DNA from: a virus
DNA: 64,000 nt
Virus record (IMG/VR): IMGVR_UViG_3300025450_000013
Direction: 5' to 3' (one strand)
The notes under the pieces are model-generated. The model ran no database searches. It saw nothing but the letters and a program-made list of their open reading frames with translations, and had not been told where the DNA came from. Both the position numbers and the translations under genes were made by a program. Shown here one piece after another: positions 32,770 through 58,852 of the stretch (its first letter is position 1; each line of letters starts with the position of its first letter).

Positions 32770-33696
32770 TTAGTTCCTAATTGAGAAGTTTAATAGTTTC
32801 TTGAAGGACTCAAGGTCTTCATTTAGCATACCTTCAACAATTTTTTTGTTTTTGGTATTAACCGAGTCATAAACTTCAAGTATTCTTTTTGCCATAGATG
32901 TATTTAGTGTAACTTGCCTTCCATTAATAGAAAGATCCATGTTATCAATACCTTCTTTAATCATGGTGCGAATATCTGTAATCTTGTTTTCTTTTATAGG
33001 AGCAATAGCAGCCTGCTTGGCCTTTGATTGATAAACAGGATCGGATGTAGGTTTATTTTCCCAAGAACTGCTAACTTTAGCTGTAGCATCATGTTTTTGT
33101 TGTGTTTGACTTACAGGCTTTTCATTTTTATCATCACTCTTTTCTTTTTTATCATCGTCTTTTTCATCGTCACCTACTAATGCTTTGCCTACCATTTTAA
33201 GACCTTTTTTAGCTAAGTCTTTTAAACCAGTAGAACCTAAAGCACGAAGGCTTAGACCAATTAAAGGATTTTCCTCAAGTTTTTCTTCACGGAGTTTTTC
33301 AACTCTTTCTTTGAAACTTTCATATGTTGGTCTGGTTGTATAAGAAGGATTACCTGGGCCGTCTTCTTTGACAGGTACACAATTTGGTACCTCTCTATTA
33401 CCTTTTTTCTTCATACCAACCTGTTCATAACCTTTCCAACAAGCCTCACTTAGATTTACATTATCTGGTCCAATTGGAATGGAAAGATACTTATCCATTA
33501 CTTTTGAATAGTAAAGAGCAACAACCTGACCTTTAGGATAGGATCTAAAAGATACTCTTCTAAAAACTATTACTGCTGGCATCTCTTTTGTAGATGGTAT
33601 AACACTTTTCTCAAGCATCAACTCCTCAGGAAGAACTTCAACCTGAGACATAAATTTATCATTATATTCTTCACGGATTTGTTTTAGCGTTTTCAT
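32770..33696 (-). CDS. Probable internal head protein (gp68-region)
   Basis: N-terminal MKTLKQIREE resembles the T4 capsid-targeting sequence; several (I/L/V)xE sites flank the module ACWKGYEQVGMKKKGNREVPNCVP. Confidence 0.55.
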   Translation of the reverse strand: MKTLKQIREEYNDKFMSQVEVLPEELMLEKSVIPSTKEMPAVIVFRRVSFRSYPKGQVVALYYSKVMDKYLSIPIGPDNVNLSEACWKGYEQVGMKKKGNREVPNCVPVKEDGPGNPSYTTRPTYESFKERVEKLREEKLEENPLIGLSLRALGSTGLKDLAKKGLKMVGKALVGDDEKDDDKKEKSDDKNEKPVSQTQQKHDATAKVSSSWENKPTSDPVYQSKAKQAAIAPIKENKITDIRTMIKEGIDNMDLSINGRQVTLNTSMAKRILEVYDSVNTKNKKIVEGMLNEDLESFKKLLNFSIRN

Positions 33697-34190
33697 TTAT
33701 TACCTTTTGCTTCTTGTCTTGACTTACTAATTTTCTTTTTTGCTTCATCAGTATGTTTGTAAAGGTTTGTTTTTCCCTTGTTATGGCCACCCCAACCTTT
33801 AAGACCTTTATTCCAAGGCACACGACCTTTAATAGCATCACTTAATTTCTTTTTTGTTTCTTCGCTATAAACTTTACCTTTATGAGATTTACTCATTTTT
33901 CTTTTGGTTTCATCCGAATGATAACATCCTGAGGAACCTTCTCCACCGTCAGTCATATTTCTTAATATTCCTGTTCCATTATCTTTACGACCATACCAAC
34001 GAATATAAAATCTTTCTAGAGCAAGGGCACCAATATCTGTCAAGTTAGATTCCATAAGCACTATTCTTGATTTATCTTTTGGAGGTTTAACCTCGTTTTC
34101 ACGATATTTATAATATGCTCTTTTACCTTTACCCTTACCAATATAATATGGTGTACCATCTGTTCTTAGATATGCATAAATATAAAACAT
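33693..34190 (-). mobile_element. Free-standing GIY-YIG homing endonuclease with NUMOD3 repeats
   Basis: YIYAYLRTDGTPYYIGKG, LRNMTDGGEG, HSDETKRKMS, VPWNKG; start moved to MFYIY behind AAGGAG. Confidence 0.88.
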
Positions 34191-34245
34191 GCTGTGTCTC
34201 CTTATTAGACATAGAGTAGGCAGGTTCCCCAACCGTGGCCTACAC
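34191..34245 (-). promoter_or_regulatory. Structured leader of the endonuclease gene
   Basis: GTAGGC-CAC-GGTT-GGGG-AACC-T-GCCTAC hairpin, then TGTCT/AGACA enclosing and overlapping the SD. Confidence 0.5.
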
Positions 34246-40235: not shown

Positions 40236-41909
40236 TTATAACCTAGGATCCCAGTTATCATGTGTGTAAAGGCCTTCTTTTTCAGTAGTTAACCATCTAT
40301 CTCCACTGGGGTCCTTTTGATCAGGAAAAGGATCATCTATACCATTATCAATAAAACCAAAAGGAACATTCTCCACATCTTGGAGGTATTCTAGTTCTTT
40401 TTGTAGAACATGACGTATATCATTTGAAACGGTTTCTTTAAATAGTTTCTGTGCAGTTAACCATCCAAAGTGAACCAAAGTCATAGCAAGGTCGTCATTT
40501 GACCCTTCCTCTGCCATGAAGGTTTTCTTATTAGCAGAAAATGAAAATAACTCGGTAATACTATCTTCATCATTAAGAATGAGTTTATCATTCTCTACTA
40601 ATGTCTTTAAGTTAGCACAACCAATCATTTTGGATTGTGCCGTTATCCTGAGACCAAAGGCCAGTTTATTTTTACCAGCAGCAAAACCACTGGATGCCTG
40701 TGTTCCCTGTTTACCTTTTGCTTGAAACTTTAAAAGATTTTCGTAGTTCAATTCAAAGTGTAAAATGTCGGCCACTTGTAAACCTATTGAATTTATTTCA
40801 ATAAGAACAAATGCTTCGTTATAAGTTGTAGCGGCTGAATAGATAACCGCTGGTAGAAGCATCGGGCTAATCTCGTTATTACGGTATTTAGCAACCTGTC
40901 TATATGGTATTTCTGTAACATCAAATATAGAAAATGCTGAATAATCTAGACCTTGACCTTCAGACACATCTGCGGTTAGAACATATGTGTGCTTTGGAAT
41001 AGGTTCTTCAAATATATCCATACATTCCATTCTACGAATAGGTTCTTTCCAGTGTAATGCTGCTAGCTTAGCACCGTTGATAAGAGTATTAGATGAACCT
41101 AAAAACTCACAACCAAACTCTTGATCAAACTGACGTTGACTTGTGTTTCTTATAGTTTCTTCGGCCCAGGCCTGGTCACGCCCGGGTACCATAGACCAGT
41201 GTATCTCAATAGGAATGTAGGTGCTAGTTTTATCAACTGCCTTTGTCCACATTTTATAGAACAAGTTCATTCCATTTGGTGTTGATACTATAACAACTTT
41301 AGAAGTTTTACCAGAAGAGATGGTAGGATAGGTTGAGTTAAAGAACTCTTCAGCGATGTTATTAGGTACGAACGCAAACTCGTCCAAAAAGATTAAGTTG
41401 AACGAGAAACCACGGACAGAACTACCAGAGGTGGAATCTGCTAGGACTCTTGACCCATTGGCCAGATATATAGAACCTTTGTTCCATTCTTTGATACCTT
41501 GCTTGAGAAACATAGGAAGATACTCAAACGCTAGTTTCAGTTTACCTAGCAACTCACGGGCCGTAGGTGCACGGTTAGCAAGGATAGCAACCACAAAATT
41601 TTCGTTGAATAATACTTGATGTAGGATGTAGGCTACACTGGTAGTTGATTTACCAACCTGTCGTGGTAGTTTGCAGATAGAGAAACGATTAGCATGAAAT
41701 GTTTCTAGCATACGCTCCTGGAAGTCCCACATGTCAAATGGAATCAAACCACGGTCAACGTTGATGATACGAATATATTTACGAGCGAAGTAAACTGGAT
41801 CTTCCGCACACTTTAGGTATTCATCAAATTCTGTTTGTGTAAATGAATGACGATATTGTTCGTTGGGAAGATTAGGATTATTTTGATAACTATACGGTGT
41901 CCTTGCCAT
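40236..41909 (-). CDS. gp17: Terminase large subunit
   Basis: KLPRQVGKST, IFLDEFAF, VSTPNG, QEF.CEFLGS, ADVSEG.G.DYS, NDDLAM. Confidence 0.98.
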   Translation of the reverse strand: MARTPYSYQNNPNLPNEQYRHSFTQTEFDEYLKCAEDPVYFARKYIRIINVDRGLIPFDMWDFQERMLETFHANRFSICKLPRQVGKSTTSVAYILHQVLFNENFVVAILANRAPTARELLGKLKLAFEYLPMFLKQGIKEWNKGSIYLANGSRVLADSTSGSSVRGFSFNLIFLDEFAFVPNNIAEEFFNSTYPTISSGKTSKVVIVSTPNGMNLFYKMWTKAVDKTSTYIPIEIHWSMVPGRDQAWAEETIRNTSQRQFDQEFGCEFLGSSNTLINGAKLAALHWKEPIRRMECMDIFEEPIPKHTYVLTADVSEGQGLDYSAFSIFDVTEIPYRQVAKYRNNEISPMLLPAVIYSAATTYNEAFVLIEINSIGLQVADILHFELNYENLLKFQAKGKQGTQASSGFAAGKNKLAFGLRITAQSKMIGCANLKTLVENDKLILNDEDSITELFSFSANKKTFMAEEGSNDDLAMTLVHFGWLTAQKLFKETVSNDIRHVLQKELEYLQDVENVPFGFIDNGIDDPFPDQKDPSGDRWLTTEKEGLYTHDNWDPRL

Positions 41910-42339
41910 CTTCTTCTTTCTTTTTCTTTATGGCAGACAATAACTCGGCTGCCGAACCAACAAATACAGCCTGTTCTACATTAATGGAATCAGGATTCTT
42001 CTTACGTGGATCGGAGTCCGGATCAGGACCTTTAAGGTCTTTGGTCATTTTCTGGAGTTGATATAGGTCTTTTGTGGTTTCACCAACGGTCTTGATTAGA
42101 GTAGAGACAACCTCAAAACCTCTTGCGGATTCTTGTTGTCGTGCAATCTGTGAGATTTCTTCAATAGCATCATTACCTTTTTCAATAAGGTTTCTGAGAA
42201 CTCTTCTGGCTAATAGATAATCTTCTTCGGCATCCGAATGAGTTTGTGGAGGTTCATACGGCATTATCTCCTGCTTTGGTACAGCAGGAGTTTCATGGTC
42301 AATGCCTAAAGCATCAGATAAGTTTTTTTCAAGTCCCAT
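41890..42339 (-). CDS. gp16: Terminase small subunit
   Basis: DY..AR..L.NLI.KG..AI, RGFEV...LIK, FVGS..EL; overlaps the gp17 start. Confidence 0.9.
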   Translation of the reverse strand: MGLEKNLSDALGIDHETPAVPKQEIMPYEPPQTHSDAEEDYLLARRVLRNLIEKGNDAIEEISQIARQQESARGFEVVSTLIKTVGETTKDLYQLQKMTKDLKGPDPDSDPRKKNPDSINVEQAVFVGSAAELLSAIKKKKEEDGKDTV

Positions 42340-42344
42340 AATGT

Positions 42345-43517
42345 CTACTCTTTATTTAAAATGATGTTGATCATAGTATCGCCTGTGCCTGTAGCAGATA
42401 CCTTATATATCAAATCGAAATCTTTTGTTACAATTTTATATCTACCAATCTTATCTAGTAATATTTCTAGATAGGCAATCATTAGTTCTTTTGATATAGC
42501 AAGAGCAATACAAGAATGGACTCCATGACCCCATGCCAAATGGCCTGAGGTATCTCTATGTATATCAAACTTGTCAGGATCAGTAAACTTATTAGGATCT
42601 CTATTAGCAGAATCCAAACAAACGGCCACTCTATCTCCAGGTTTTAGATCAACACCATGTATAGTGATTTTTTCAGTTGTGGTTCTGGTAAATCTTCCTG
42701 TAGGAGTATTGAATCTTAGAGATTCGTTTATAGCAAAAGGAATAAGAGATTTATCTTTCAATAATATGTCTAGTTTGTTTTCTCTATATAGGTCCAATGT
42801 AAGAAACTGTAATGCTGATATCAATGAACCAGCACCAGATATAGTAGGAGCACCTGTGAATAGTGATGTTTTAGATTGATCTTTTAAAATAGGATCATTA
42901 AAAGTTTTTAAAAATTCGTTATACACACCAGGACCTTTAGAAGGTGTATTTCCATATATTACATTATCCAACACTCTATATTTAATGCTTAAATTACGAC
43001 TTCTTTCTTCAAAATTTTCAATATGATCCGAATAAACCGCATGTTGACTACATTCTTGTGTTTCTGATATAATATTTTTGACATAATCTTTTTCTAAAGG
43101 AAAATTTAAAATTTCCGCAATAGCCCATGATGCTAGTTCTTTTGTAATTTCCGAAACGTTTAATTGTGTTTGACCTTCAAAAAACTCAATTGCTTTTTTG
43201 GAAAACAAATCAACAACTCTCTTTATGTTGTCTTTGGTATAAGCATTTTTTAAAAGGTTTTTGTATTCGTTATGCAAAGGATTATCGCTCGTACCTAAGG
43301 TATGACCAAATCTAGGAGGATAATCAAAAGGTAAATTGCCTTTTGCTGATGAGAAAATCTCTGGATTACTCAGTATATAATAGACATCATCATATCTGGT
43401 TATGACATAAAGGTTATACTTTTCACTCCAATATGCTGTCTGACTATTTCGGAGTTCTTTGTATATGCTATGTTTGTTTAATAGCCATTCTCCGGATTGT
43501 GGTTCAAACATCACCAT
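42345..43517 (-). CDS. Cytochrome P450
   Basis: ITRYDDV...L..P..FSS, D.P.H, K-helix ESLR (ExxR), SANRDP..F.DPDKFDI.R, heme motif HLAWGHGVHSCIA; start moved to MVMFE behind GGAG. Confidence 0.92.
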   Translation of the reverse strand: MVMFEPQSGEWLLNKHSIYKELRNSQTAYWSEKYNLYVITRYDDVYYILSNPEIFSSAKGNLPFDYPPRFGHTLGTSDNPLHNEYKNLLKNAYTKDNIKRVVDLFSKKAIEFFEGQTQLNVSEITKELASWAIAEILNFPLEKDYVKNIISETQECSQHAVYSDHIENFEERSRNLSIKYRVLDNVIYGNTPSKGPGVYNEFLKTFNDPILKDQSKTSLFTGAPTISGAGSLISALQFLTLDLYRENKLDILLKDKSLIPFAINESLRFNTPTGRFTRTTTEKITIHGVDLKPGDRVAVCLDSANRDPNKFTDPDKFDIHRDTSGHLAWGHGVHSCIALAISKELMIAYLEILLDKIGRYKIVTKDFDLIYKVSATGTGDTMINIILNKE

Positions 43518-44955
43518 TTTTTCTCTCCGAATCAATAAATTCAAGTAACTTATCTCTATCTGGTTTTACAGCAACCGTTACAAAAGAATAGTTTTTCATA
43601 TACAAAACACTTTTTAGTTCAACTTCGGAATTATATATTTCTTTTATAATACTTTTAACTTCTTCTTCTTGACCAACAAGTTCTTTACTATCCGTAACAA
43701 TATAAAGTTCATTATAGATTTCATCCACTACAACCTCAAATCTATTTCTAGAACAAAACTTTTCTGCCTTTTCTATTATATCCAATGGATTTATTTCAAT
43801 ATCATTAATTTTTCTTAATTTATTTTTTCTAATGAAATATAAACCGTCTTCCTTTTCATCTACTATATCTTCGGTTATAACTCTTTTACCGTTCGGTAGA
43901 TCAACTGTAAGTAGCCCATCAATTTGTTTTGTATCATAGAAACCGGTGGTTGGTTTACCTAAAAACAAAGGATTAAAATTTTCTGTGGTCTTGTCTATGT
44001 AAGGAACAAGCAATGGTCCACCTGTCTCAGAACAACCAAATGCACTAATGATTTTCTTTAGTTTACCTTCTTTGATAACTTTTAACCACTTTGGGTTTAT
44101 AAATGATACAACTATGATAGTGGTGTCTGGTAAACCAATATCATCTTTTTCTATAGAATCAATGATAGAATCGGTAATAGATGCGTTTGGAGATAATAGT
44201 TTGGTGATATCACGATCTTTAGCAGTCAAAAAGATATAATAAGGATATCCTTTGTCTGCTTCTACTAAGTGTTGAACAGAAAGATAATGTGTCTTGCACT
44301 TACGAATAGATGGAAGATATAACACACTAAGAGAAGCACCATGGTTTATAGAAGACATATGGAATACGGCATCATTATTTTCCAGTTCCATGGGGTGCCA
44401 GTTATAACTACAAAGACCATAAATGTATTCATGGTTATGATATATTAGTTTTGGATCACCGGTGGTTCCACTACTATTACATAAAAGTATATCATCTCCT
44501 GGTCTAGCCCACACAGGGGTTTCATAAGAACATTTTAAAGAATTGGTTAAGTTCCATTCTTTTGTAATACAAATAACTTTATCTGAGTTTTTAATATAAT
44601 GTTGTATGGTTAGATCAAATGCATACATTGTATTTTTATCATCATAACAAACAAAAATATCCAAAGGCATATGTGCTTTTGCTTTTGGTTTAAATGTTTC
44701 GTTTGGTGAATGAAATCTATGTAAGACGGTAAGTTTTAATCCTAACTCAAATATGGCAAAAAGCAATGCTGTATAAAAAATATCGGTAGGTAAAAGTGTG
44801 ACGCCTATTTTATGACCTCTTTTAGCACCACATTCTATTAATTTATATTTACAATAGTCTATTATTCTGCAAAGACCATCTTTATCATATTTTTGGCCAT
44901 AACAGTAAAAAATTGCATCATCATTAATCCATTGTCTAGTAACAATTTTATACAT
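43504..44955 (-). CDS. Adenylate-forming (ANL/AMP-binding) enzyme, divergent
   Basis: P-loop NSSGTTGDPK, FGCSETGG, TED (TGD equivalent), RK....KI....INP.DI, terminal KPDR lysine. Confidence 0.8.
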   Translation of the reverse strand: MYKIVTRQWINDDAIFYCYGQKYDKDGLCRIIDYCKYKLIECGAKRGHKIGVTLLPTDIFYTALLFAIFELGLKLTVLHRFHSPNETFKPKAKAHMPLDIFVCYDDKNTMYAFDLTIQHYIKNSDKVICITKEWNLTNSLKCSYETPVWARPGDDILLCNSSGTTGDPKLIYHNHEYIYGLCSYNWHPMELENNDAVFHMSSINHGASLSVLYLPSIRKCKTHYLSVQHLVEADKGYPYYIFLTAKDRDITKLLSPNASITDSIIDSIEKDDIGLPDTTIIVVSFINPKWLKVIKEGKLKKIISAFGCSETGGPLLVPYIDKTTENFNPLFLGKPTTGFYDTKQIDGLLTVDLPNGKRVITEDIVDEKEDGLYFIRKNKLRKINDIEINPLDIIEKAEKFCSRNRFEVVVDEIYNELYIVTDSKELVGQEEEVKSIIKEIYNSEVELKSVLYMKNYSFVTVAVKPDRDKLLEFIDSERKNGDV

Positions 44956-45172
44956 TATTTAATTTATCTTTAAGATCCTGTATAAGAGTTTGGAATTGTT
45001 GTTTTTGATCATCGGTTAATTTATCATAATCAAAACCAGATTCGGTTATATTATTTGCTAGAAAAAAAGGTTCAAATATACTCTGAAGTAATGACTTGTC
45101 AACCCAGTTGTTATTAAAAGGGCACCAAACATAATTAGGTCCTGGAGAAGGAGGTCTTTTGGTATTTGTCAT
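44948..45172 (-). CDS. Hypothetical 74-aa protein
   Basis: PPSPGPNYVWCPFNNNWVD; overlaps the ligase start; possibly a fibre-assembly-type helper. Confidence 0.55.
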   Translation of the reverse strand: MTNTKRPPSPGPNYVWCPFNNNWVDKSLLQSIFEPFFLANNITESGFDYDKLTDDQKQQFQTLIQDLKDKLNNV

Positions 45173-45176
45173 ATTA

Positions 45177-45836
45177 TTAACTCCAACTAATGTTTACGTA
45201 ACCGTTTCCACCATTACCACCGTTACCACCACCAGCATTACCACCTCCACCACCACCTCCAGCACCAACTACTACACTTAAATATGTATTCCATGCTGGA
45301 TATCCAGGTGTTGCAATATAAGTCCAAGTTTTAACAGCAAGCCCACCTGCTCCCCCTGGTACAGAAGGTCCTGTTCCGTTACCTGAACCACCGTATCCAC
45401 CGTTAAATGCACCACCTGTATCATTACTATCACCACCTGAAGCAGTACCAAGACCACCTCCACCCAAACTAGGTTGTGATCCACCACCTTGCCCACCATT
45501 TGCTATTACACCGTCAAAGATACTTGCGGTACCATCACCTCCACCGGATCCTGAATACCAATATATGAAAGCGGTTGAACCACCTCCACCGCCTCCTCCA
45601 CCACCAGCTACGGTAACACTTAAAGTTTTGTAGGCAGGAATTAAAAAAGAATAGGTACCAGGAGTAGTAAATGATTGAGAACCTGCAACAGGTTTACCAA
45701 CTGCTTGTGATAGTGATATTTTACCAGATGCAGAACCTAAAAGATATCTAACATTAGGATCACTCATAGAGATTTGAGTAATGCCATTTTTAACAATACT
45801 TGCAATTTGACTCATAGATGGGATAGAGATTGGCAT
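45177..45836 (-). CDS. Glycine-rich tail-fibre tip (adhesin-like) protein
   Basis: N-terminal ISMSDPNVR.L.G.ASGKISLS.AVGK, FTTPGTYSF, polyglycine tracts, VVVGAGG...GGNGYVNISW. Confidence 0.65.
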   Translation of the reverse strand: MPISIPSMSQIASIVKNGITQISMSDPNVRYLLGSASGKISLSQAVGKPVAGSQSFTTPGTYSFLIPAYKTLSVTVAGGGGGGGGGSTAFIYWYSGSGGGDGTASIFDGVIANGGQGGGSQPSLGGGGLGTASGGDSNDTGGAFNGGYGGSGNGTGPSVPGGAGGLAVKTWTYIATPGYPAWNTYLSVVVGAGGGGGGGNAGGGNGGNGGNGYVNISWS

Positions 45837-45840
45837 TGTA

Positions 45841-47271
45841 TTATCCTATCTTAGATTCAAGTGCTTCAATTTTCTTTTGTTGCTCTTTAATGGCTTCAAT
45901 TAATAAAACGATTATTTTTTCATATTTGACAGCTTTTATACCGTTTTCTCTTACAGCTACGGCTTCTGGAAGGACTCTTTCAATTTCTTGTGCAATAACA
46001 CCAACATCATGTTTACGAACAAAGTATCCGTCTTCACCACCTTTTTCTTTAATGTAATCATCCGTCCAATCAAATTCCACACCACGGATCTTCTTAACTT
46101 TATTAATAGCATTTTCAATAACTGTCACATTTTCTTTAAGTTTTATATCAGATCCATAATATGCAGTAATATCATTTGAGGCCCAAATTTGATTTAGACT
46201 CCAGAATCCACCAGTGTTGAAAAGACCTATATTAGTTCCATTTGTTCTTATATAGACAGGTGTGTTTATATCTGTTCCTAAACTAAGTGCTCCACCATTT
46301 ACAACAACTGATCCCCACTGTGTTGACTGATATTGGTCAGTGAATTGTAGAATACCAGAACCACTTGAACCCGGATAAATTCTAATACCGTAGTTTCCAC
46401 CACCTGTTCTGAAAACACCACCATTACCATCAATATAACTATAAGTACCAAAAGTTGCTGAACTATCAACAGATAAAGATCCTTGAACTCTAAATGATGT
46501 ATAAGCAATACCATTATATTTTGGAATTGCTGCTGATCCTAAACTGTAAGCTGCATTGGCCCAAGCATATGCTCCACTCGCAACAGTACCGACATAATTG
46601 GAATTATATATTGCAGCATTTGCTTGGTTGAATCCTGCATTAGCAACACCAAATGCGTATCTTAATTGATAACCAATATTATTGGCATAGTTATATGCTG
46701 AAGTTGTATTAGCAGTAAGACCGGATACTGCACTTACAGTTAATCCTAAAGTGCTATTAGATTGATCAAATGAACTTGAAACATAATATTGCAATGCATT
46801 TGCTTGATCAAAAGCGGCCGCTGCATTGATTGTAGCACCATAGGCGATAGAATTTATAGAATTTGCAAATGTTCCTACTGAATTAACGGAACCAAATGCA
46901 CTATTAGATGTTAAATAAGCAACGTTTAATTTATCACTTGTTGATGAGATTAAATCATATGAAGCATTAGCAGCTGCCCATGCGGCATTAGCAGTATTGG
47001 CAATAACAAATGATGTTTGTGCGGCAAAGTAAATTCCATTGGCCCAATTAAAAGCAGCATTAGCAGTATTATAAGCCTCGACGGTCTTATTCTGAATTTC
47101 ACCACCAAAGTTAATAAAGATGCCTGATATATTTTCTAAATTAGCAGTAAGATTAGCGACAGAAGTATAAAGTTCACTAAAGTTATTATCAACCTTAGTA
47201 AAAGATACTCTCATTACATCGCCGGTACCGTCATTAGGAACTGTACCTATGTTAATATATTGTTGTGCCAT
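45841..47271 (-). CDS. Tail fibre with C-terminal intramolecular chaperone (peptidase S74-like)
   Basis: N-terminal INIGTVPNDGTGD..R..F.KV..NF.ELY; Ala/Asn heptads; SDIKLKENV, GVEFDW, GVIAQEIE.VLPEAV, LLIEAIKEQQ. Confidence 0.85.
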   Translation of the reverse strand: MAQQYINIGTVPNDGTGDVMRVSFTKVDNNFSELYTSVANLTANLENISGIFINFGGEIQNKTVEAYNTANAAFNWANGIYFAAQTSFVIANTANAAWAAANASYDLISSTSDKLNVAYLTSNSAFGSVNSVGTFANSINSIAYGATINAAAAFDQANALQYYVSSSFDQSNSTLGLTVSAVSGLTANTTSAYNYANNIGYQLRYAFGVANAGFNQANAAIYNSNYVGTVASGAYAWANAAYSLGSAAIPKYNGIAYTSFRVQGSLSVDSSATFGTYSYIDGNGGVFRTGGGNYGIRIYPGSSGSGILQFTDQYQSTQWGSVVVNGGALSLGTDINTPVYIRTNGTNIGLFNTGGFWSLNQIWASNDITAYYGSDIKLKENVTVIENAINKVKKIRGVEFDWTDDYIKEKGGEDGYFVRKHDVGVIAQEIERVLPEAVAVRENGIKAVKYEKIIVLLIEAIKEQQKKIEALESKIG

Positions 47272-47311
47272 TGTGATTTTTCCGCTGTTTGTTTACTTAT
47301 TTATACCACTA

Positions 47312-48571
47312 TTAGGTCAGACCAGTTCCTGACATTACAAATGTATTACCACTAGATCCAATACCTTGAACGCAAATTATATGTGCTAGGCCGTTTGCAG
47401 CAAGAGTTCTATTACCAGTGGTAAGACCACCTGCTCTTAATGATACGTTTGTATTCTGTGTAATGGTAATTGATGATGATGTATTGTTAAAAATATACAT
47501 TGTATTACCAGCAGAGAATACAGCATTAGGAACAAAAATTGTTCCTGTAGCAGCAACTACGGAACCAACATCAGAAATAGTTAAACCATATGGGCTCGCT
47601 TTAGAAGAAACGAAACGATTATTTGACAGTGCGGTGTTTGCCACACCAAAGGCCGCATTAATAACACCAAAGGCACTATTAACTGCCGTATAAGTTGTAT
47701 TGGTAAGACCAAAAGCAGCAATAGTGTTGGTTGATACACCATTAGCAAAACCAAATGCCGAACTTAAAGTTGATAGAACATTTTGACCTGCAACAAACAA
47801 TGAACTAGAAACGTTTGTTGATCCTGCAACATCAAGTGTATATTGTGGATTAGTGGTACCTATACCAACATTAGCACCACCTGCAAAGTCCTGAATACGC
47901 ATTGCTTCATTGACTGCAAGAGAACCGCCTACGAAGAAATTTATAAACTTGAAAGTAGAAGTTGAATTAGCCGTACCAATTGAAAGATTGCCATCAGATG
48001 TGTAGAGATAACCATCATTATTAGCATTAATAGTCCATGTTGGTAGGCTATACTTAGAACTATTAATACCAAGATCAATATAGTTTGTGGTATCTGTACC
48101 ATTATCTGCGGTTGCAACAATGTCTGTGGAAGAGTTTACACCAGCATAAGCATTACGAATCTGTAATTGGACTGTATTGTTTTGTGTACCTTCAGCATCA
48201 ATAATATCACCAAAGAGAGCAATTGGAGTTACAGAACCTTGAACGATTGTTAGTGGTGCGGCCGCTGTTGTTGTTCCTATACCGACGTTACCTGTTGGAA
48301 AATATAGAGTTCCACTGAACTTAGAACCTGATGTATTTGGTAAAGCAGTATTGGCAATACCATATGCATTATTTGTCAGAGTATAAACGTTTGCAATTAA
48401 AGAACCGTTTACATCTAATCCTATTAATAAGTCTGAACTACTAGCAAAAAGAGATGATGTAAAACCATATAATTCATTAAAATTAGCATTTACTTTGATA
48501 AACGCATCTCTTAATTTATCACCGGTACCATCATCGGCTGTTGTTCCTGTATTAATTACTTGTTCCGACAT
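47312..48571 (-). CDS. Tail fibre / appendage protein
   Basis: Same N-terminal attachment motif (INTGTTADDGTGDKLRDAFIKVNANFNELY); GNVGIGTT repeats; C-terminal FVMSGTGLT. Confidence 0.75.
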   Translation of the reverse strand: MSEQVINTGTTADDGTGDKLRDAFIKVNANFNELYGFTSSLFASSSDLLIGLDVNGSLIANVYTLTNNAYGIANTALPNTSGSKFSGTLYFPTGNVGIGTTTAAAPLTIVQGSVTPIALFGDIIDAEGTQNNTVQLQIRNAYAGVNSSTDIVATADNGTDTTNYIDLGINSSKYSLPTWTINANNDGYLYTSDGNLSIGTANSTSTFKFINFFVGGSLAVNEAMRIQDFAGGANVGIGTTNPQYTLDVAGSTNVSSSLFVAGQNVLSTLSSAFGFANGVSTNTIAAFGLTNTTYTAVNSAFGVINAAFGVANTALSNNRFVSSKASPYGLTISDVGSVVAATGTIFVPNAVFSAGNTMYIFNNTSSSITITQNTNVSLRAGGLTTGNRTLAANGLAHIICVQGIGSSGNTFVMSGTGLT

Positions 48572-48594: not shown

Positions 48595-49599
48595 TTATTC
48601 TATTTCTGGCCACTCAATGATATCTGTCGTATAACCATAATCGTCCGTTGGTTTTGCATTAATAGGATCTGGAGTTATTTTTATACTTACTAATTCTAAT
48701 GGTTTGGTATAAAATGACGCTAAGGTACAAACACCATTGGTAGACACTGCATGTATGGTATTATTTACTTTAAATATACCTTGAGTAGCACCTAGTACCA
48801 ACTGATTAGATTGACTATTATAACTTATAACAATTGCAGTTGCAGTTGCGGTCCCGTAATTATTACCTTGAAAGACAAAATCATTTATCTTAAATGTACC
48901 GTTTGCGTTTGATGTATTTATCCTTGTTATATATCCAGATTGTAAACTTGTATCGTTCCAGATATTTGCATAAACAGTGCGAATAATCTTTGGATAACTG
49001 ATAGGTCCATAATAATACATCTTCATGGTAAAGTTAAGGGTCCAATTTACATACCTTACAGTATCAAAATCTCCCTCATATTGAATGTCATTTGATACGT
49101 TATTAAGTATGATAGGAACATCTTTTAATGCTCCTAGGTCTGGTATCATATTGGTAGATACGGTAAAATCTGGATTAAAGAATGGTAAAATCTGTTCAAC
49201 AATCTGAGTACCATCGTCAATGTTCCGTGTGTAGATGTTCAACTGAAAGTTAATATCATATGGAACACCCATATAGGATGCTGAGACATGTGTGGTTGTA
49301 TTGGATCTGGCCGCTTTCAATAAAGAGTTTTGTTTTCTTGTGGCGTCATATGTGATACCAGTTATTTCAAAAGACATTCTAGGTAATATAACTTGAACTG
49401 ACTTCAATAAATCTGGATCTGAAAATAAACGAGTAATCATTTTCTCTTTTGGAGAATAAATAATAGGAACTAAAAAACGATTGGTTTCTGCACCAGTTTG
49501 ATCATTTGTTCTAACCAACGTAATGTCATCAAACAAACGACCAAAAAGGACGACTGCTTTACGGGTTAATTGATGATAAAATGGATCGTTACCTAACAT
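48595..49599 (-). CDS. gp15: Tail sheath stabiliser / terminator
   Basis: FYH, FGRLF, VPIIYSPKEK, LPRMSFE, VPY, QIVEQILPFF.P, WTLNFT.K..YYGP. Confidence 0.95.
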   Translation of the reverse strand: MLGNDPFYHQLTRKAVVLFGRLFDDITLVRTNDQTGAETNRFLVPIIYSPKEKMITRLFSDPDLLKSVQVILPRMSFEITGITYDATRKQNSLLKAARSNTTTHVSASYMGVPYDINFQLNIYTRNIDDGTQIVEQILPFFNPDFTVSTNMIPDLGALKDVPIILNNVSNDIQYEGDFDTVRYVNWTLNFTMKMYYYGPISYPKIIRTVYANIWNDTSLQSGYITRINTSNANGTFKINDFVFQGNNYGTATATAIVISYNSQSNQLVLGATQGIFKVNNTIHAVSTNGVCTLASFYTKPLELVSIKITPDPINAKPTDDYGYTTDIIEWPEIE

Positions 49600-51278: not shown

Positions 51279-51884
51279 TTACCTGAACTTAGGACCTTCT
51301 ACCCATATAACAATTGACTTACGAATACCTAAGTGTACCGGTTTCACTCTATGGATCAGAAAAGATGGAAATGCTATAATCTTACCTCTAGTCATTTCAG
51401 GTGTTCTTGCATCTTCTTCCATTCCAAGGTTTATTTGAAATTCACCCCCTGAGAAATGAACTTGTGGTTCTGATAGTAACATAACCAAAGTTAATTTTCT
51501 GACAGAATCGGTACAATCATTATCACCTAATACCGTATCCATATGCCAGTCATACATTCCTTTATTCAAAGAATCATAAACAGTGTATTGAAAATCTTTA
51601 TAACCATAAAGGTCAAATCCAAAATAAGTTGAATTTATTCTATCAATCACACCGTTAAATTTATCAAAAATCCAATAATTCTCTTCATTTCTGCTGATAA
51701 ATTTTACCTTAGATTTTCTATGCTGTTCACAATCTTCACCTTTACCGACTGTTGTGGATCTATGTAATTCTTCTTTTTGACATAATTTTTCAATGTCATT
51801 CAATTCATTTTCAACAAATAAATTTTCCCACAAAATATAACTAGGTATATTTTTTCTAAAATTCACAGGATCATTTGAAATCAT
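51279..51884 (-). CDS. 2OG-Fe(II) oxygenase, prolyl-4-hydroxylase/PKHD-like
   Basis: RKSKV, FQYTVY, YDWHMD (HxD), RKLT, GGEF, FPSFLIHRVKPV..G.RKS.V.W; start moved to MISND (TAATG coupling). Confidence 0.88.
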   Translation of the reverse strand: MISNDPVNFRKNIPSYILWENLFVENELNDIEKLCQKEELHRSTTVGKGEDCEQHRKSKVKFISRNEENYWIFDKFNGVIDRINSTYFGFDLYGYKDFQYTVYDSLNKGMYDWHMDTVLGDNDCTDSVRKLTLVMLLSEPQVHFSGGEFQINLGMEEDARTPEMTRGKIIAFPSFLIHRVKPVHLGIRKSIVIWVEGPKFR

Positions 51885-52345
51885 TATGTATTGGCCACCA
51901 CCATTTTGTTTGATATCATGTAATTTATTACGTTGTTTACCACATTTGGCATACATTTATTTGCCACATCATTAATTTCATCAAGTTGTGTTTTAAGTAT
52001 TAGATTGTTAGCATCATTTGCTGAATAACTATTTACATTGTATAAAAATGTATTAACATTTGTAAAATTAACAACTGTATTAACTTTTGGTGTAATAGCC
52101 CAAAAAGGAGTTGCTGATTGTATAAGATTTAAAATATCATTAGATGAAGTATTTGCAGTATCATATATTGTTAAATTTGTGTCGGTAGAACAATGAATAG
52201 GATAACCATTACTGGTTAACATAATATCCCCACGAACATCAATGGAGGTTGATAGTGTATTTTCAGAAACCTTATCACTCCAATATCTAACAGTAAATGT
52301 ATTTTCCTCTGGGAAAACATCTATAATTCTAAAAAATACGTTCAT
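51884..52345 (-). CDS. Hypothetical protein, possible fibre chaperone
   Basis: 153 aa between the Gly-X-X adhesin and the oxygenase; AGGGG SD. Confidence 0.6.
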   Translation of the reverse strand: MNVFFRIIDVFPEENTFTVRYWSDKVSENTLSTSIDVRGDIMLTSNGYPIHCSTDTNLTIYDTANTSSNDILNLIQSATPFWAITPKVNTVVNFTNVNTFLYNVNSYSANDANNLILKTQLDEINDVANKCMPNVVNNVINYMISNKMVVANT

Positions 52346-54142: not shown

Positions 54143-54159
54143 TTACTATGGAGTTTGCT

Positions 54160-55329
54160 ATGAAAATTGGTCTTATAGGTGATCATATTACCGATATTTA
54201 TATATATGGGAAAATGACTAGGTTTTCACCGGAGTCTCCTATTCCTATCTTTGACATAGAGAGAGAAGAAAGTCGTTCTGGCGGTGCTTCCAATGTCAAT
54301 AACAATCTAATGGCCCTTGGTGCTTCTGTTGATTACCACTGTGACAAAATAAACTATTCTATCAAAAAACGATATGTCTGTGACGGCCACATAATGTTCC
54401 GTGTGGATGCCGATAAGACCAGCACCGTTGATCCATGTCTTGCCGAATTTACCGAAGAAACCAAGTATGTCATCCTTTCCGACTATGGTAAGGGTATTTT
54501 GACATATAGTTCTGAAGTTATTGATAAACTGAAGCAAGATGGTAAGATCGTCATTGTTGATCCTAAAAGGCATATCAGTCATTATGAAGGTGCTGATATT
54601 GTCAAGATGAATGAGAAAGAATATTATCAGTTCTGCCCACAGGGAAAAGGTGCTTTAAAGTATTATGATATAGGAACTTTTGTGATAACCTTGGGTGGCA
54701 AAGGTGTTAGAATTATTAATGAAAATGGTGATACAACAATTCCAGGTCTAGGATTACAAGTATCTGATGTGACAGGCGCCGGTGATGTGTTCATTGCTGC
54801 TATGACATACTACCTAGCAAAAGGTAAAGACATATATCAGGCCTGTGATATTGCGAACAAGTATGCGGCTAAGTCCGTAACCAAGTTTGGTACCTATACA
54901 ATTACCGAAGATGATAAAAGAGAGATTGAAGGTAAGATAGTATTCACCAACGGTTGCTTTGATATTCTACACCGTGGCCACATTGAATATCTACAAAAGT
55001 CTAAAAAATTAGGAACTAAGTTAATTGTAGCTTTAAACTCAGATGAATCAGTTGCTAGACTAAAAGGCACTGTCAGACCACACAATAAGCAGGAAGATCG
55101 TAAGAGAGTATTAGAGGCTCTTGATTGTGTTGATGAGGTTATTATCTTTAATGGTGACACACCATATGAAATAATTAAAGATTTGAAGCCTGACATTATA
55201 ACAAAAGGTGGTGATTATAAGACTAAAGAAGAAGTGGTCGGGCATGATCTTGCTGAGGTCGTTATATTACCTTTTGTTGATGGATATTCTACTACTAAAA
55301 CATTGGAGTATATGAATGGAGATTGTTGA
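54160..55329 (+). CDS. hldE: Bifunctional heptose-7-phosphate kinase / heptose-1-phosphate adenylyltransferase
   Basis: R.SPE.P.P, GGA.NV..N, ILSDYGKG, VDPK, DVTGAGD (PfkB), then FTNGCFDILHRGH, NSDESV..LKG..RP, KGGDY, GYSTT. Confidence 0.93.
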   Translation: MKIGLIGDHITDIYIYGKMTRFSPESPIPIFDIEREESRSGGASNVNNNLMALGASVDYHCDKINYSIKKRYVCDGHIMFRVDADKTSTVDPCLAEFTEETKYVILSDYGKGILTYSSEVIDKLKQDGKIVIVDPKRHISHYEGADIVKMNEKEYYQFCPQGKGALKYYDIGTFVITLGGKGVRIINENGDTTIPGLGLQVSDVTGAGDVFIAAMTYYLAKGKDIYQACDIANKYAAKSVTKFGTYTITEDDKREIEGKIVFTNGCFDILHRGHIEYLQKSKKLGTKLIVALNSDESVARLKGTVRPHNKQEDRKRVLEALDCVDEVIIFNGDTPYEIIKDLKPDIITKGGDYKTKEEVVGHDLAEVVILPFVDGYSTTKTLEYMNGDC

Positions 55330-55666
55330 GAAGAAATGGGGTAGAGAGATAATCTTTGCCAATAATGATAAGTATTGTGGTAAACTTCTTATACATGATA
55401 AATCCGGTTCTAAAGGTTCTATGCATTTCCATATGAAGAAACATGAGACCTTTTATGTCCAGAAAGGTATATTCAAGATACACTGGATTGAAACCAATGA
55501 TGCAAAGATACATAATACTATCCTTAGAGAAGGTGATACATGGGTCAATGAACCTGGGCAACCGCATCAGATTGAGGCTTTAGAGGACAACTCAACTATA
55601 ATCGAGGTATCTACAACACACTTTGACAATGACAGTTATAGAGTTATGCCAGGAGACGGTCAATGA
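55316..55666 (+). CDS. Cupin-fold sugar isomerase/epimerase-like protein
   Basis: KWG.E, YCGK.L, SMHFH..KHETFYV, PHQ, IEVST. Confidence 0.75.
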   Translation: MEIVEKKWGREIIFANNDKYCGKLLIHDKSGSKGSMHFHMKKHETFYVQKGIFKIHWIETNDAKIHNTILREGDTWVNEPGQPHQIEALEDNSTIIEVSTTHFDNDSYRVMPGDGQ

Positions 55667-55965
55667 AGTATATAATGGATATCGACGGAACAATCTGTAC
55701 CAATACTAATGGTGATTATGAGAAGGCAACTCCTTATCTAGACCGCATAGATTATATCAATCACCTATATGATAAAGGGCATGAGATACATTACTGGACG
55801 GCCAGAGGTGGTAACTCAAGGAGAGATTTATCAGAACTAACCAAAAAACAATTAAAAGAATGGGGATGCAAATACACCTCACTAAGATGTGATAAACCAG
55901 CATATGATTACTGGATAGATGACAAGGCATTTAATGATAGAGATTTCTTTGGAGTTAATTTATGA
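55663..55965 (+). CDS. Minimal HAD-family phosphatase
   Basis: DIDGTIC, WTARG, KP..D.WIDDKA. Confidence 0.8.
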   Translation: MKYIMDIDGTICTNTNGDYEKATPYLDRIDYINHLYDKGHEIHYWTARGGNSRRDLSELTKKQLKEWGCKYTSLRCDKPAYDYWIDDKAFNDRDFFGVNL

Positions 55966-56753
55966 TATTGATAACTGGTCATAAAGGATTTATCGGTCAA
56001 AACCTTGTTAATAGATTAAATGATAAACTCTTTTGCCTTTCTGATATTGACAGTTGCTTCAAAGACCTTTATTTAACACCTTGGGAAGATATAGAAGAAA
56101 TATGGCATATGGGTGCCATCTCTGATACTACTTGTACCGATTTAAATAAAATCCATACTTATAACATAGAATATACCATAAATCTATTTGAACTTGCTAT
56201 TCAATATAAGATACCAGTAAAGTATGCCTCGTCCGCGTCCGTGTATGGAAACACTAACTATCGTAGAGAGATTAATCCACTAAACTTCTATGCTATGTCT
56301 AAGGCTACTATTGATCGTTGGGTAATGGATAATTTATACAAGTTTGAATCTATACAAGGTTATCGTTTCTATAATGTATATGGTAAGCATGAAGACCATA
56401 AAGGTGGCCAGGCCAGTCCGATACATACATTCATCAAGCAGGCAAAAGAAACAGGAACGATTAAACTATTTGAAAACTCGGTTGCCTATATGAGAGACTT
56501 TATTTGGGTTGAAGATGTTATAAATTGTATGCTGTATGATAAACCAAGTGGTATATATGATCTAGGAACTGGAGTAGCAAGGTCGTTTGAAAGAGTGGCT
56601 GAAATCATAGCAGACAGATATAATGCCAAGTTAGAGTATGTTCCATTTCCAAAACACCTTGAAGACAAGTATCAATACTTCACTTGTTCATTAAATCACT
56701 TTGATCATACATTCACATCAATAGAGGAATATGTTAATGAAAGAGGAGTATAA
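55962..56753 (+). CDS. hldD: ADP-L-glycero-D-manno-heptose 6-epimerase-like SDR
   Basis: ILITG..GFIG.N, H.GAIS.TT, YASSASVYG, PLN.YA.SK, R.YNVYG..E.HKG..AS, RDFI.V.DV, KYQ.FT. Confidence 0.9.
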   Translation: MILITGHKGFIGQNLVNRLNDKLFCLSDIDSCFKDLYLTPWEDIEEIWHMGAISDTTCTDLNKIHTYNIEYTINLFELAIQYKIPVKYASSASVYGNTNYRREINPLNFYAMSKATIDRWVMDNLYKFESIQGYRFYNVYGKHEDHKGGQASPIHTFIKQAKETGTIKLFENSVAYMRDFIWVEDVINCMLYDKPSGIYDLGTGVARSFERVAEIIADRYNAKLEYVPFPKHLEDKYQYFTCSLNHFDHTFTSIEEYVNERGV

Positions 56754-57348
56754 AGAGATTGCACCTGGCTGGTTATGGCAGTCTAATGTCACTAGTGATC
56801 TTATGAAATATGATGAGAACTATGTAAAACCATACACTAAGTATGATGATACTCTCTCATATATTAGACTCAACTTTTGTCAAAAGTATGCCAAGTTTTA
56901 TTCGGTTCTTGATGTTGGATATGGCGACGGTAACTTTCTCAAAGTATGTAATCGTGAAGGATACAAATGTTTTGGTAATGATATATCAGGATATTCTTTA
57001 TCAGACGGAATAACTTTTACTGAAAATAGAAATATACCTGTTGACCTTGTTACGTTCTTTGATTGTATTGAACACTTTCCACAAGAAAATGTTGAAGAGG
57101 TATTAAAAGAACTAAATTGTAAGTATATCTGCATTTCGATTCCTTGGTGTCATTTTGATAATTTTGAAATATGGAAACACCGCAAGCCTAATGAACATTT
57201 CCATCATTTTGGTGTTAGAGGTGTTACTGAGTTATTGAATAGAGGTGGGTTTGATTTGATTGTTTCTGCTTCAATTGAAGATCAAGTTAGGTCAAACAAA
57301 GGCGGAATACCAAATATTTTAACTGTTATTGGAAAGAAAAGATGTTAA
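56731..57348 (+). CDS. Class I SAM-dependent methyltransferase
   Basis: VLDVGYGDG.F, DLVTFFD.IEH, EH.HHF. Confidence 0.8.
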   Translation: MLMKEEYKEIAPGWLWQSNVTSDLMKYDENYVKPYTKYDDTLSYIRLNFCQKYAKFYSVLDVGYGDGNFLKVCNREGYKCFGNDISGYSLSDGITFTENRNIPVDLVTFFDCIEHFPQENVEEVLKELNCKYICISIPWCHFDNFEIWKHRKPNEHFHHFGVRGVTELLNRGGFDLIVSASIEDQVRSNKGGIPNILTVIGKKRC

Positions 57349-58022
57349 ATTTATATTATTCGCATAGGACAGATGTTGAAAAAGCATACATTATTACAAT
57401 AAAGGGTAATAATATGTCCGAAAAATATTCAAAAAGATGTCAAGAATCGTGTAAAAATGTTGGTATGCAATATCAAGTATGGGACGCATTTGATGGAACT
57501 GGTGATGAAATAATAATACCAGAACACTCTAAGAATAATCCCATTTTTAAAATGGTGAAAATACAAGATCATCATATGACAAAAAGTGAACTTAGTTGTT
57601 TTCTTAGTCATTTAAGTTTATGGGCTAGATGTGTCGAGATAGACCAACCAATAGTTATACTTGAACATGATGCTATAATGGTAAAAAAGTTTGAAAATAA
57701 AACTAGTTATAATTCTATTGTATATCTTGGTTGTGAAATATGGGCAAAAAAAGGATCTAATATAGAAGATATTCCAATATATGGATCTGGTGGAATGAAT
57801 AATCTTTATATATATAAAGGACATGCATATTGTATAGATCCACAAGTTGCTAAGAATATGTTATCAGATGTTTTTAAGCGTGGTATATGGACAATTGCAG
57901 ATAGATTTATGAAAGCAGATTTATATAACATAACTCATCAAGGATTATATGCTTTTGAAAATAAATTTAACGATGAAGATTCTACTATAGTTCCAAGAGA
58001 GAAAGATGAATATACATGTTAG
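57342..58022 (+). CDS. GT25-family glycosyltransferase-like protein
   Basis: AFDG, E.SCFLSH..LW..C, IVILEHDA, HAY.I.P..A. Confidence 0.8.
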   Translation: MLNLYYSHRTDVEKAYIITIKGNNMSEKYSKRCQESCKNVGMQYQVWDAFDGTGDEIIIPEHSKNNPIFKMVKIQDHHMTKSELSCFLSHLSLWARCVEIDQPIVILEHDAIMVKKFENKTSYNSIVYLGCEIWAKKGSNIEDIPIYGSGGMNNLYIYKGHAYCIDPQVAKNMLSDVFKRGIWTIADRFMKADLYNITHQGLYAFENKFNDEDSTIVPREKDEYTC

Positions 58023-58852
58023 ATGAAAATATGCAAAATTATTTAAGTCATATGTTTGACATGGTTAGTGATTTAAGAGACTTAAAGTTATATGAAAGAA
58101 CCAATACATCTAAGAATCCTTTAAATCATTATGGTCGTAGGGCTTTCAGTCAGTCAGACGAAGATGGTATTACACAAGAGATTATGAAACGTATAGGAGT
58201 TGATAATGGAGTTTTTGCTGAATTTGGAGTAGGATCAGGTTTAGAATGTAATACATTATTGTTAGCTGGATTAGGTTGGTCAGGGTTTTGGGTTGACGCT
58301 GGAAACATATTACCTAAAATTGAACAATCTGCAAATCCAAAATTTTCATTTTTTAAACGTCATATAACATTAAATAACGTATTAGAAACATACTTACAGT
58401 GTTTGAAATATATTAATAAAGAAGAAACAGATTTTATTTCTTTTGATTTTGAAGGTAATGATTATTATTTAATTGAGAGATTATTGCAATCTGGAGTATC
58501 TCCTAAAGTATTCGTAGTTGAATATAACGCTAAATTTATACCACCCATTGAATGGAAAGTTAAATATCATGAAAATCTAATATGGGAATATGATGATTAT
58601 TTTGGTGCTTCTCTTATGTCATATGTTAAATTGTTTGAAAAACATAATTATTTTCTTGCATGTTGTAATAGTTTTACAGGAGCAAATGCTTTCTTTATTA
58701 AAAACAAATATAAAGAATTTTTTAGTGATATTCCAAAATCAATCAATGATATTTGGGTTGAGCCTAGATATTATATTACTAAAAAGTATGGTCATAAGAG
58801 TTCTGTTAGGACTGTAGAATTGTTGCTTAATAATTTAAACTCTTGTCAATAA
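58016..58852 (+). CDS. FkbM-related methyltransferase-like protein
   Basis: FSQSDEDGI, EFGVG.G.ECNT, ISFDFEGNDYY, VVEYN, GASL, GANAFF. Confidence 0.7.
   Translation: MLDENMQNYLSHMFDMVSDLRDLKLYERTNTSKNPLNHYGRRAFSQSDEDGITQEIMKRIGVDNGVFAEFGVGSGLECNTLLLAGLGWSGFWVDAGNILPKIEQSANPKFSFFKRHITLNNVLETYLQCLKYINKEETDFISFDFEGNDYYLIERLLQSGVSPKVFVVEYNAKFIPPIEWKVKYHENLIWEYDDYFGASLMSYVKLFEKHNYFLACCNSFTGANAFFIKNKYKEFFSDIPKSINDIWVEPRYYITKKYGHKSSVRTVELLLNNLNSCQ

Follow-up and report, generated by a model that had tools for sequence, protein, structure and literature searches.

The window analyzed here is a 64-kb stretch of a virus genome (IMG/VR record IMGVR_UViG_3300025450_000013). Our subject is the segment at positions 42345-45836 (minus strand), in which the gene of a glycine-rich (Gly-rich) tail protein is followed by genes for a 74-aa protein (p74), an adenylate-forming enzyme of the ANL superfamily, and a cytochrome P450. 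The reading we prefer, with a probability of roughly 0.4, is that the P450 and the ANL enzyme are autonomous accessory enzymes that were joined by recombination in a plastic slot of a tail-fibre operon, and that their substrates would be small aromatic or acyl compounds, with cofactors supplied by the host.

The principal evidence comes from co-occurrence. In none of approximately 130 related loci (denoted by L and a number) are a P450 and an ANL gene found together; the window alone holds both. The absence extends to entire viral records: the ANL profile has no match in the P450-bearing records, including a complete genome of 348.7 kb, and the P450 profile has none in the ANL-bearing records, including a complete genome of 172.4 kb. 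As positive controls, each profile matched in the records that carry its own enzyme. Because each enzyme occurs alone in other phages, we regard the two as autonomous. A coupled two-enzyme pathway, as proposed by an earlier reading of the sequence alone, is not borne out by a pair that recurs in no other examined locus and is reciprocally absent from complete genomes.

The pattern of sequence identities points in the same direction. In related phages the position of p74 is occupied by a protein of 169-193 aa, here termed f170, which consists of an N-terminal domain (about 95 aa) and a C-terminal domain (about 70 aa); the window copy lacks the N-terminal domain. The Gly-rich protein (58% identity), p74 (40-42%) and the ANL enzyme (56-70%) of the window have their nearest counterparts in the ANL-type modules L136 and L162, and the P450 has its own in the P450-type modules L011-15 (66%). 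Judged by this pattern, the window looks like a recombinant of an ANL-type and a P450-type module.

Gene order, promoter and composition

The genes of the locus, from its upstream to its downstream boundary, are as follows.

48595-49599, minus strand: gp15 tail sheath stabiliser (PF16724, 229.5 bits, E 4.5e-68), upstream boundary of the insert
47312-48571, minus strand: 419-aa fibre protein or baseplate-connector-like protein, N-terminus resembling gp9/10 (phrog_958, baseplate wedge subunit; PF07880 at E 6.5e-5, narrowly missing the cut-off)
47298..47305, minus strand: putative T4-type late promoter motif TATAAATA, 27-34 nt 5' of the start of the S74 fibre gene
45841-47271, minus strand: 476-aa tail fibre ending in an S74 intramolecular chaperone domain (PF13884, 53 bits; many PHROG tail-fibre families, best E 4e-37)
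45177-45836, minus strand: 219-aa Gly-rich tail (fibre tip-like) protein (PHROG minor tail protein families, E 1e-4; weak Gly_rich_2 match)
44948-45172, minus strand: 74-aa open reading frame (ORF) p74, corresponding to the C-terminal domain of the f170 family on its own (f170 hidden Markov model (HMM), E 6.6e-13)
43504-44955, minus strand: 483-aa ANL-superfamily adenylate-forming enzyme (PF00501, 45.6 bits, cut-off 29.9)
42345-43517, minus strand (ORF open to 43544): cytochrome P450 of about 390 aa, CYP203-like, without the I-helix acid (PF00067, 54.2 bits, cut-off 22.8)
41890-42339, minus strand: gp16 small terminase (PF11053, 36.6 bits), downstream boundary of the insert, with TerL next

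The source is a new T4-like freshwater myovirus without a close cultured relative, and the window lies on a contig of 174,226 bp. The best relatives of its large terminase (TerL) are those of Synechococcus phages and of Methylophilales phage Melnitz (53-55% identity). Coordinates and profile matches agree with the order given by the sequence-only reading, which placed the fibre, S74 fibre, Gly-rich, 74-aa, ANL and P450 genes between gp15 and gp16.

From the promoter motif onwards, the genes of the fibre operon abut or overlap. The window contains eight exact copies of TATAAATA, all of them on the coding (minus) strand, a total that is not above shuffled expectation. The p74 ORF overlaps the ANL gene by 8 nt. 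The most likely start of the P450, judged from the sequence, is ATG 43517 or ATG 43511, both candidates being preceded by GGAG; TTG 43544 is probably not the start. The ANL stop codon (TGA 43504-43506) is accordingly overlapped by 14 or 8 nt, and the earlier statement that the last three genes overlap is upheld. These three had also been described as AT-richer than the core genes. The AT-richness itself stands (GC content 0.30-0.32 vs 0.378 for the window), its restriction to the three genes does not: GC content at third codon positions is 0.15-0.215 over the entire block from fibre to P450, compared with 0.25-0.33 in core genes, and is low in the fibre genes as well. No tRNA genes were found in the window.

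The cytochrome P450

The P450 sequence matched 404 P450 sequences in the Protein Data Bank (PDB). The sequence-only reading had noted a retained ExxR motif and heme cysteine, and both assignments hold: the K-helix motif E274-S-L-R277 is invariant in 25 homologues, as is N314-R315-D316 of the meander, and the heme loop reads LAWGHGVHSCIA (the WGHGVHSCIA stretch), its Cys ligand being invariant in 25 of 25 homologues. His343 and Gly339 of the same loop are likewise invariant. From its sequence, the protein is predicted to be an intact, soluble enzyme of the bacterial type.

The I-helix deviates from the usual pattern. Its segment SGAGS aligns with AGVES of PDB entry 8FBC, and the consensus of the 25 homologues is SGASSL. 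The position of the acid is occupied by Gly in the window and by Ser in the family consensus, hence the acid-alcohol pair (A/G)Gx(D/E)T is not found; the alcohol position is a Ser that is nearly invariant in the family. The earlier statement that the acid-Thr pair is missing was therefore half right, as it applies to the acid and not to the alcohol. Certain bona fide P450s also lack the I-helix acid-alcohol pair, and membership in the P450 superfamily is not excluded by this feature.

The best solved relative, by a wide margin, is CYP203A (P450-T2, PDB 8FBC; CYP203A1 of Rhodopseudomonas palustris). As a single sequence, the phage P450 matches 8FBC with an E-value of 3.7e-39 (138 bits over 345 residues); the family profile matches it with 1.7e-58 (201.6 bits), the next solved P450 scoring 130 bits. 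Under the rules of nomenclature, a CYP family requires at least 40% identity to a named member. The 138-bit score over 345 residues suggests an identity below 40% to 8FBC, and the phage P450 is therefore treated as CYP203-like and not as a member. The best match in NCBIfam is a model for cyclodipeptide synthase-associated P450s, whose 114 bits are far below the cut-off of 500 bits.

Both the phage protein and CYP203A have the layout of soluble bacterial P450s with ExxR, NRD and an HxC heme loop. They differ in the I-helix pair, which is Glu-Ser in 8FBC and Ser/Gly-Ser in the phage family; the similarity is distant, and the phage P450 is viral and located in a fibre operon. CYP203A enzymes bind substituted phenols and benzoates, and their natural substrate and role are not known (PMC7780096). 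By sequence comparison, the phage P450 appears related to the CYP203A/CYP199A enzymes that bind aromatic acids and phenols.

Homologues are numerous in metagenomes (331 at E <=1e-5), with 45 loci in IMG/VR. No match was obtained by tblastn against 50,697 deposited phage genomes (E 1e-5), no PHROG family was matched, and megablast of the locus against the deposited phage genome collection returned nothing. Among phages, the papers citing viral P450s name Mycobacterium phage Adler only, and no redox partner encoded by a virus is known for viral P450s (PMC9405906). The family described here resembles these earlier viral P450s (of giant viruses and of phage Adler) in being virus-encoded without a virus-encoded redox partner. 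It differs in being represented in metagenomes only, in its occurrence in T4-like and jumbo phages, and in being fixed, in part, in a tail-fibre cassette.

The search for redox partners was negative throughout. A motif scan (not a full profile scan) of all six-frame ORFs of the window revealed no Fe-S ferredoxin cysteines, flavodoxin or reductase motifs, in line with the earlier observation that neither a ferredoxin nor a reductase is present, and no Fer2, Fer4_15 or flavodoxin genes were found in five viral records with P450 or ANL. Given this absence, the P450 would use host proteins or a non-canonical route.

The adenylate-forming enzyme

The catalytic motifs of the ANL superfamily are largely retained, as judged from 24 homologues. 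The A3 P-loop reads SSGTTGDPK (residues 161-169) with S162, G163, P168 and K169 invariant; A5 reads FGCSETGGP with invariant E310; and A10 reads VKPDR with the invariant catalytic Lys464. In A7, which reads TED, D363 is invariant and the Gly of the canonical TGD is replaced. The A8 hinge region reads RKNKLRKINDIEIN, in which K377 and D385 are conserved and the canonical GRxxD is not matched. The A4 region reads H-x-S-S-x-N-H-G; the NHG is shared with acyl- and aryl-CoA ligases, and the FDxS that marks amino-acid-activating domains is missing.

An AlphaFold2 model (pLDDT 88.2, pTM 0.88) has the two-domain ANL fold, and its top 50 Foldseek matches are all ANL enzymes. Sequence and model together predict an intact enzyme with the full two-domain fold. 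Its structural neighbours form a flat list (AuaEII, McyG, acyl-ACP synthetase, ACSM2A) at 13-16% identity, and the best PDB profile match scores 28 bits. Compared with stand-alone ANL enzymes (AuaEII, ACSM2A, AasS, 4CL, FadD13), the phage protein shares the two-domain fold (Foldseek E ~1e-21, TM 0.6-0.72) as well as the P-loop, the A5 Glu, the A7 Asp and the A10 Lys. It differs in its low identity to any solved member (the same 13-16%), in TED for TGD and in the atypical A8 hinge.

Metagenomes contain 80 homologues. A tblastn search of the 50,697 deposited phage genomes gave no match, and the comparison with PHROG gave a single weak one (E 0.006). On the sequences found, the family appears to be restricted to phages.

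In other phages the usual site of the ANL gene is an early region near tyrosinase, gp59 and gp32. For example, in T4-like phage contigs a gene for a tyrosinase (PF00264, about 476 aa) precedes ANL by a few kb (L004:4489-5928, L009:3866-5296, L010:358-1788). A Gad2 family protein (PF26128) is encoded about 1 kb 3' of ANL in the T4-like contigs L006 (10453-11493), L007 and L008. Clustering of neighbouring ORFs yielded no clear conserved functional partner; the close subfamily gave only syntenic early genes, and a distant subfamily (25-29% identity) gave an 86-aa membrane-like protein. Other neighbours of the distant subfamily may, judged by their N-terminal sequences, encode an NAD-dependent epimerase, a radical-SAM protein and a cupin. 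A secreted-looking protein of 94 aa beside ANL genes in other phages was considered as a relative of p74 and found to be unrelated.

The Gly-rich protein and the f170 family

The Gly-rich protein of the window shares 52% identity with its positional counterpart in L001-3 (and, as given above, 58% with that of L136/L162). In every locus with examined neighbours, an f170 gene is located directly 3' of the gene for the Gly-rich tail protein. p74 aligns to the C-terminal domain of f170 only (profile positions 101-174) and is, by this alignment, a truncated f170 that consists of the C-terminal domain alone. The p74-type domain has an invariant Tyr14, Trp23 and Lys57.

With the homology to f170 established, readings of p74 as a carrier, an MbtH-like protein or an 'aroma-sacti' protein were dropped; p74 has one sub-threshold NCBIfam match (17.5 bits, cut-off 30) and no carrier motif. 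No phosphopantetheine-type Ser motif is present in p74, which has a Thr/Ser at the helix N-cap and no (D/H)S(L/I). A role of the 74-aa protein as a dedicated peptide or carrier is not supported, since it is an f170 C-terminal domain.

The N-terminal domain of f170 defines a family of 579 representative clusters (E <=0.001). The best 150 matches of f170 are all small stand-alone proteins of at most 310 aa, and no longer fusion is among them. Of 40 members compared with PHROG, four match tail-fibre-assembly or tail-chaperone families and five match tail-fibre-protein families; one of 40 weakly matches Caudo_TAP in Pfam (E 0.0016). Among named Atlas clusters, the nearest are those with Caudo_TAP_N or Phage_tail_APC, at weak scores (<=0.80). 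A search of the PDB with an AlphaFold2 model (pLDDT 84.8) found no neighbour (E 0.3 at best in Foldseek, Z 4.3 at best in VIA-align). f170 follows the Gly-rich protein in the same way as chaperones (Caudo_TAP, Phage_tail_APC) follow fibres, though it has no Pfam membership or PDB neighbour, and the window holds the C-terminal 74 aa only. From its position and the weak matches, we read f170 as a putative fibre-assembly-like partner of the Gly-rich tail protein.

Neighbourhoods in other phages

The order S74 fibre, Gly-rich protein, f170, P450 is found in L001-3/L016, L011-15, L017, L018/19/21, L020, L022, L023/L139 and L163/164, with a P450 identity to the window of 54-66% and always tight spacing between f170 and P450. 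The order Gly-rich protein, f170, ANL is found in L057/58/L138 (52% ANL identity to the window), L136 (70%), L137 (61%) and L162 (56%); the f170 of L137 consists of the N-terminal domain only, yet ANL follows. The cassette is located 5' of gp13 in L020, L023 and L163 and between gp15 and gp16 in the other loci, the order being kept. A recurring link to fibre genes in other phages had been named as a test of the sequence-only reading. Such a link exists for each enzyme singly behind the cassette of S74 fibre, Gly-rich protein and f170 (P450 in at least 9 lineages, ANL in at least 4), and does not exist for the pair.

What follows Gly-rich protein and f170 varies between phages: the slot may be filled by a P450 or an ANL enzyme, by a 2-oxoglutarate (2OG)-Fe(II) oxygenase with or without a P450, or by other genes. 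Such an oxygenase occupies the slot in L146, L154 and L158 and follows the P450 in L023 and L163.

Most members of both enzyme families sit outside fibre modules, and the f170 HMM detected no f170 domain beside these copies. P450 genes elsewhere are found on viral contigs of about 130-360 kb with genes for fatty acid desaturase, fatty acid hydroxylase, radical-SAM and FabD-like proteins, or among small early-type ORFs. A cluster of P450 with fatty acid desaturases, fatty acid hydroxylase, radical-SAM protein and FabD-like acyltransferase is conserved in L005, L024, L028, L032 and L045-L048, where repeated paralogues of about 100 aa and about 196 aa, with no family assigned, flank the P450. From its gene content, this jumbo-phage cluster looks like a lipid or natural-product gene cluster. 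In phylogenetic trees, one change of context is needed for the P450 and two for ANL. With so few changes, the recurring adjacency to f170 is explicable by few captures and vertical descent.

Interpretation of the locus

Under the preferred reading, the stretch would be the 3' end of a late distal tail-fibre operon, with two intact accessory enzymes lodged behind the Gly-rich gene and a remnant of f170. The fibre promoter would drive late co-transcription of all genes, and their translation would be coupled. The ANL enzyme would adenylate a carboxylic acid and transfer the acyl group to CoA or another nucleophile. The P450 would oxidize a small aromatic or lipophilic compound derived from the host, with electrons from host ferredoxin and reductase; alternatively, since the I-helix acid is missing in the whole family, a non-canonical route of oxygen activation is conceivable. 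In the window phage the two enzymes may share related substrates, and neither would need the other.

Several observations count against this reading. A purely metabolic gene would not usually be expressed late, together with structural genes, and the searches by sequence and structure for the subfamily of the ANL enzyme gave flat lists of neighbours in which none stands out. The junction between f170 and the P450 or ANL gene is an overlap or a gap of at most 15 nt, and is kept at enzyme identities down to 54-56%. This tight adjacency outlives the relocation of the entire cassette. The part of f170 retained in p74 is precisely the C-terminal domain found beside every P450 in a fibre context. 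In a semi-blind check, new two-domain f170 representatives were picked without knowledge of their neighbours, and in two of the three informative cases f170 is followed by an enzyme (ANL in L162, P450 in L163).

The adjacency, the retained domain and the semi-blind check favour the foremost rival explanation, a tentative possibility in our assessment, which has one or both enzymes modifying the Gly-rich tip protein or p74 (the C-terminal domain of f170) post-translationally. The P450 would hydroxylate or cross-link a conserved Tyr or Trp, ANL would acylate a conserved Lys via the acyl-adenylate, and fibre assembly, stability or receptor binding would be tuned as a result. Consistent with such a role, the translationally coupled order of Gly-rich protein, f170 and enzyme recurs in at least 12 lineages and outlasts relocation of the cassette; in fibre contexts the P450 always comes after an f170 with the p74-type C-terminal domain and its three invariant residues; and the f170 of the window lost the N-terminal domain and kept the C-terminal one, whose gene overlaps that of ANL directly. 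The 2OG-Fe(II) oxygenases in the slot or after the P450 point the same way, as does a prolyl-4-hydroxylase (P4H)-like 2OG oxygenase beside a collagen-repeat protein in the window, which resembles a pair of enzyme and structural substrate.

We note that modification of the tip is weakened by the majority of P450 and ANL family members being outside fibre modules, as in most phages neither f170 nor a Gly-rich gene is nearby. Two unrelated chemistries in one slot fit a cargo slot better than a single maturation role, the ANL of L137 follows an f170 without the C-terminal domain, and the closest characterised relatives of the P450 bind small aromatics. The 2OG cases of L146, L154 and L158 share downstream genes and may represent a single event. 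The specific proposal that in this clade the P450, and separately the ANL enzyme, are virion-maturation enzymes, oxidizing or cross-linking aromatic residues or acylating a lysine of the Gly-rich tip or the f170 C-terminal domain, is in our assessment slightly less probable still than the rival as a whole.

A dedicated two-enzyme pathway for a small molecule is improbable. In such a pathway an acid or amino acid would be activated by ANL, perhaps with p74 as carrier, and the P450 would oxidize the tethered intermediate, an arrangement that would resemble the adenylation and peptidyl carrier domains plus P450 beta-hydroxylase cassettes of nonribosomal peptide synthetases. The overlapping p74, ANL and P450 genes and the best NCBIfam match of the P450, albeit at 114 bits below its cut-off, are in its favour. 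The features expected of such cassettes (carrier Ser, FDxS, co-inheritance) were not found: p74 is a fragment of f170 without the carrier-protein Ser motif, the ANL enzyme has no FDxS, and the pair occurs at no other examined locus and is missing from the complete genomes with one enzyme. Tree and identity pattern, moreover, indicate a recent recombinant junction.

That one or both enzyme genes are decaying passengers without function in this phage is the least plausible explanation, suggested by the truncation of the neighbouring f170 gene to 74 aa and by Gly instead of the Ser of relatives at the I-helix acid position, and opposed by full-length reading frames, intact family-invariant catalytic motifs in both enzymes, start/stop coupling with a GGAG ribosome-binding site, and the confident AlphaFold2 fold of the ANL enzyme.

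Neither viral P450s nor auxiliary enzymes of phages are new as such. The novelty lies in a large phage P450 family that appears distinct from the described CYP families, in a phage-restricted ANL family, and in the fixation of members of both behind the Gly-rich/f170 cassette. Judging from the searches above, both enzyme families appear to be large, to reside on phage contigs and to come from metagenomes only. Members of the P450 family occur widely in T4-like and jumbo phages of freshwater and are missing from deposited phage genomes. Because part of each family is fixed at one tail-fibre slot, metabolic cargo and modification of the host-recognition apparatus become testable alternatives, and either answer extends the chemistry known to be encoded by phages. 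A role in virion maturation, if true, would be the first case in which the receptor-binding apparatus of a phage is modified post-translationally in a P450-dependent manner. In addition, f170 is defined as a large family of small companions of Gly-rich tail proteins without a known fold.

Other genes of the window and of related loci

The P4H-like 2OG-Fe(II) oxygenase mentioned above (PF13640, 46 bits; 51279-51956, minus strand) adjoins a 582-aa protein with collagen triple-helix repeats (PF01391; 52356-54104, minus strand), both genes being located just 5' of gp13. By domain content, the two may constitute a pair of prolyl hydroxylase and structural protein. A 2OG-FeII_Oxy_3 gene just 5' of gp13 is also found in L001-3, L163 and L164. 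Within the structural region, a plus-strand island for sugar-nucleotide metabolism and glycosylation (54148-58852) encodes an HldE-like fusion of PfkB kinase and cytidylyltransferase, a cupin, an NAD-dependent epimerase/dehydratase, a methyltransferase and a family-25 glycosyltransferase of the lipopolysaccharide type. A 710-aa RCC1-repeat protein (PF25390, 430 bits) is encoded at 61789-63921 (minus strand). A 179-aa protein with NUMOD3 motifs, a likely homing endonuclease, is encoded at 33693-34232 (minus strand) between a DUF6321 protein and the next genes of the structural region. In L014 (2135-4864) and L015 (2941-5670), the TerL match is split by an insertion of about 1.07 kb, which suggests an intron, an intein or the insertion of a homing endonuclease.

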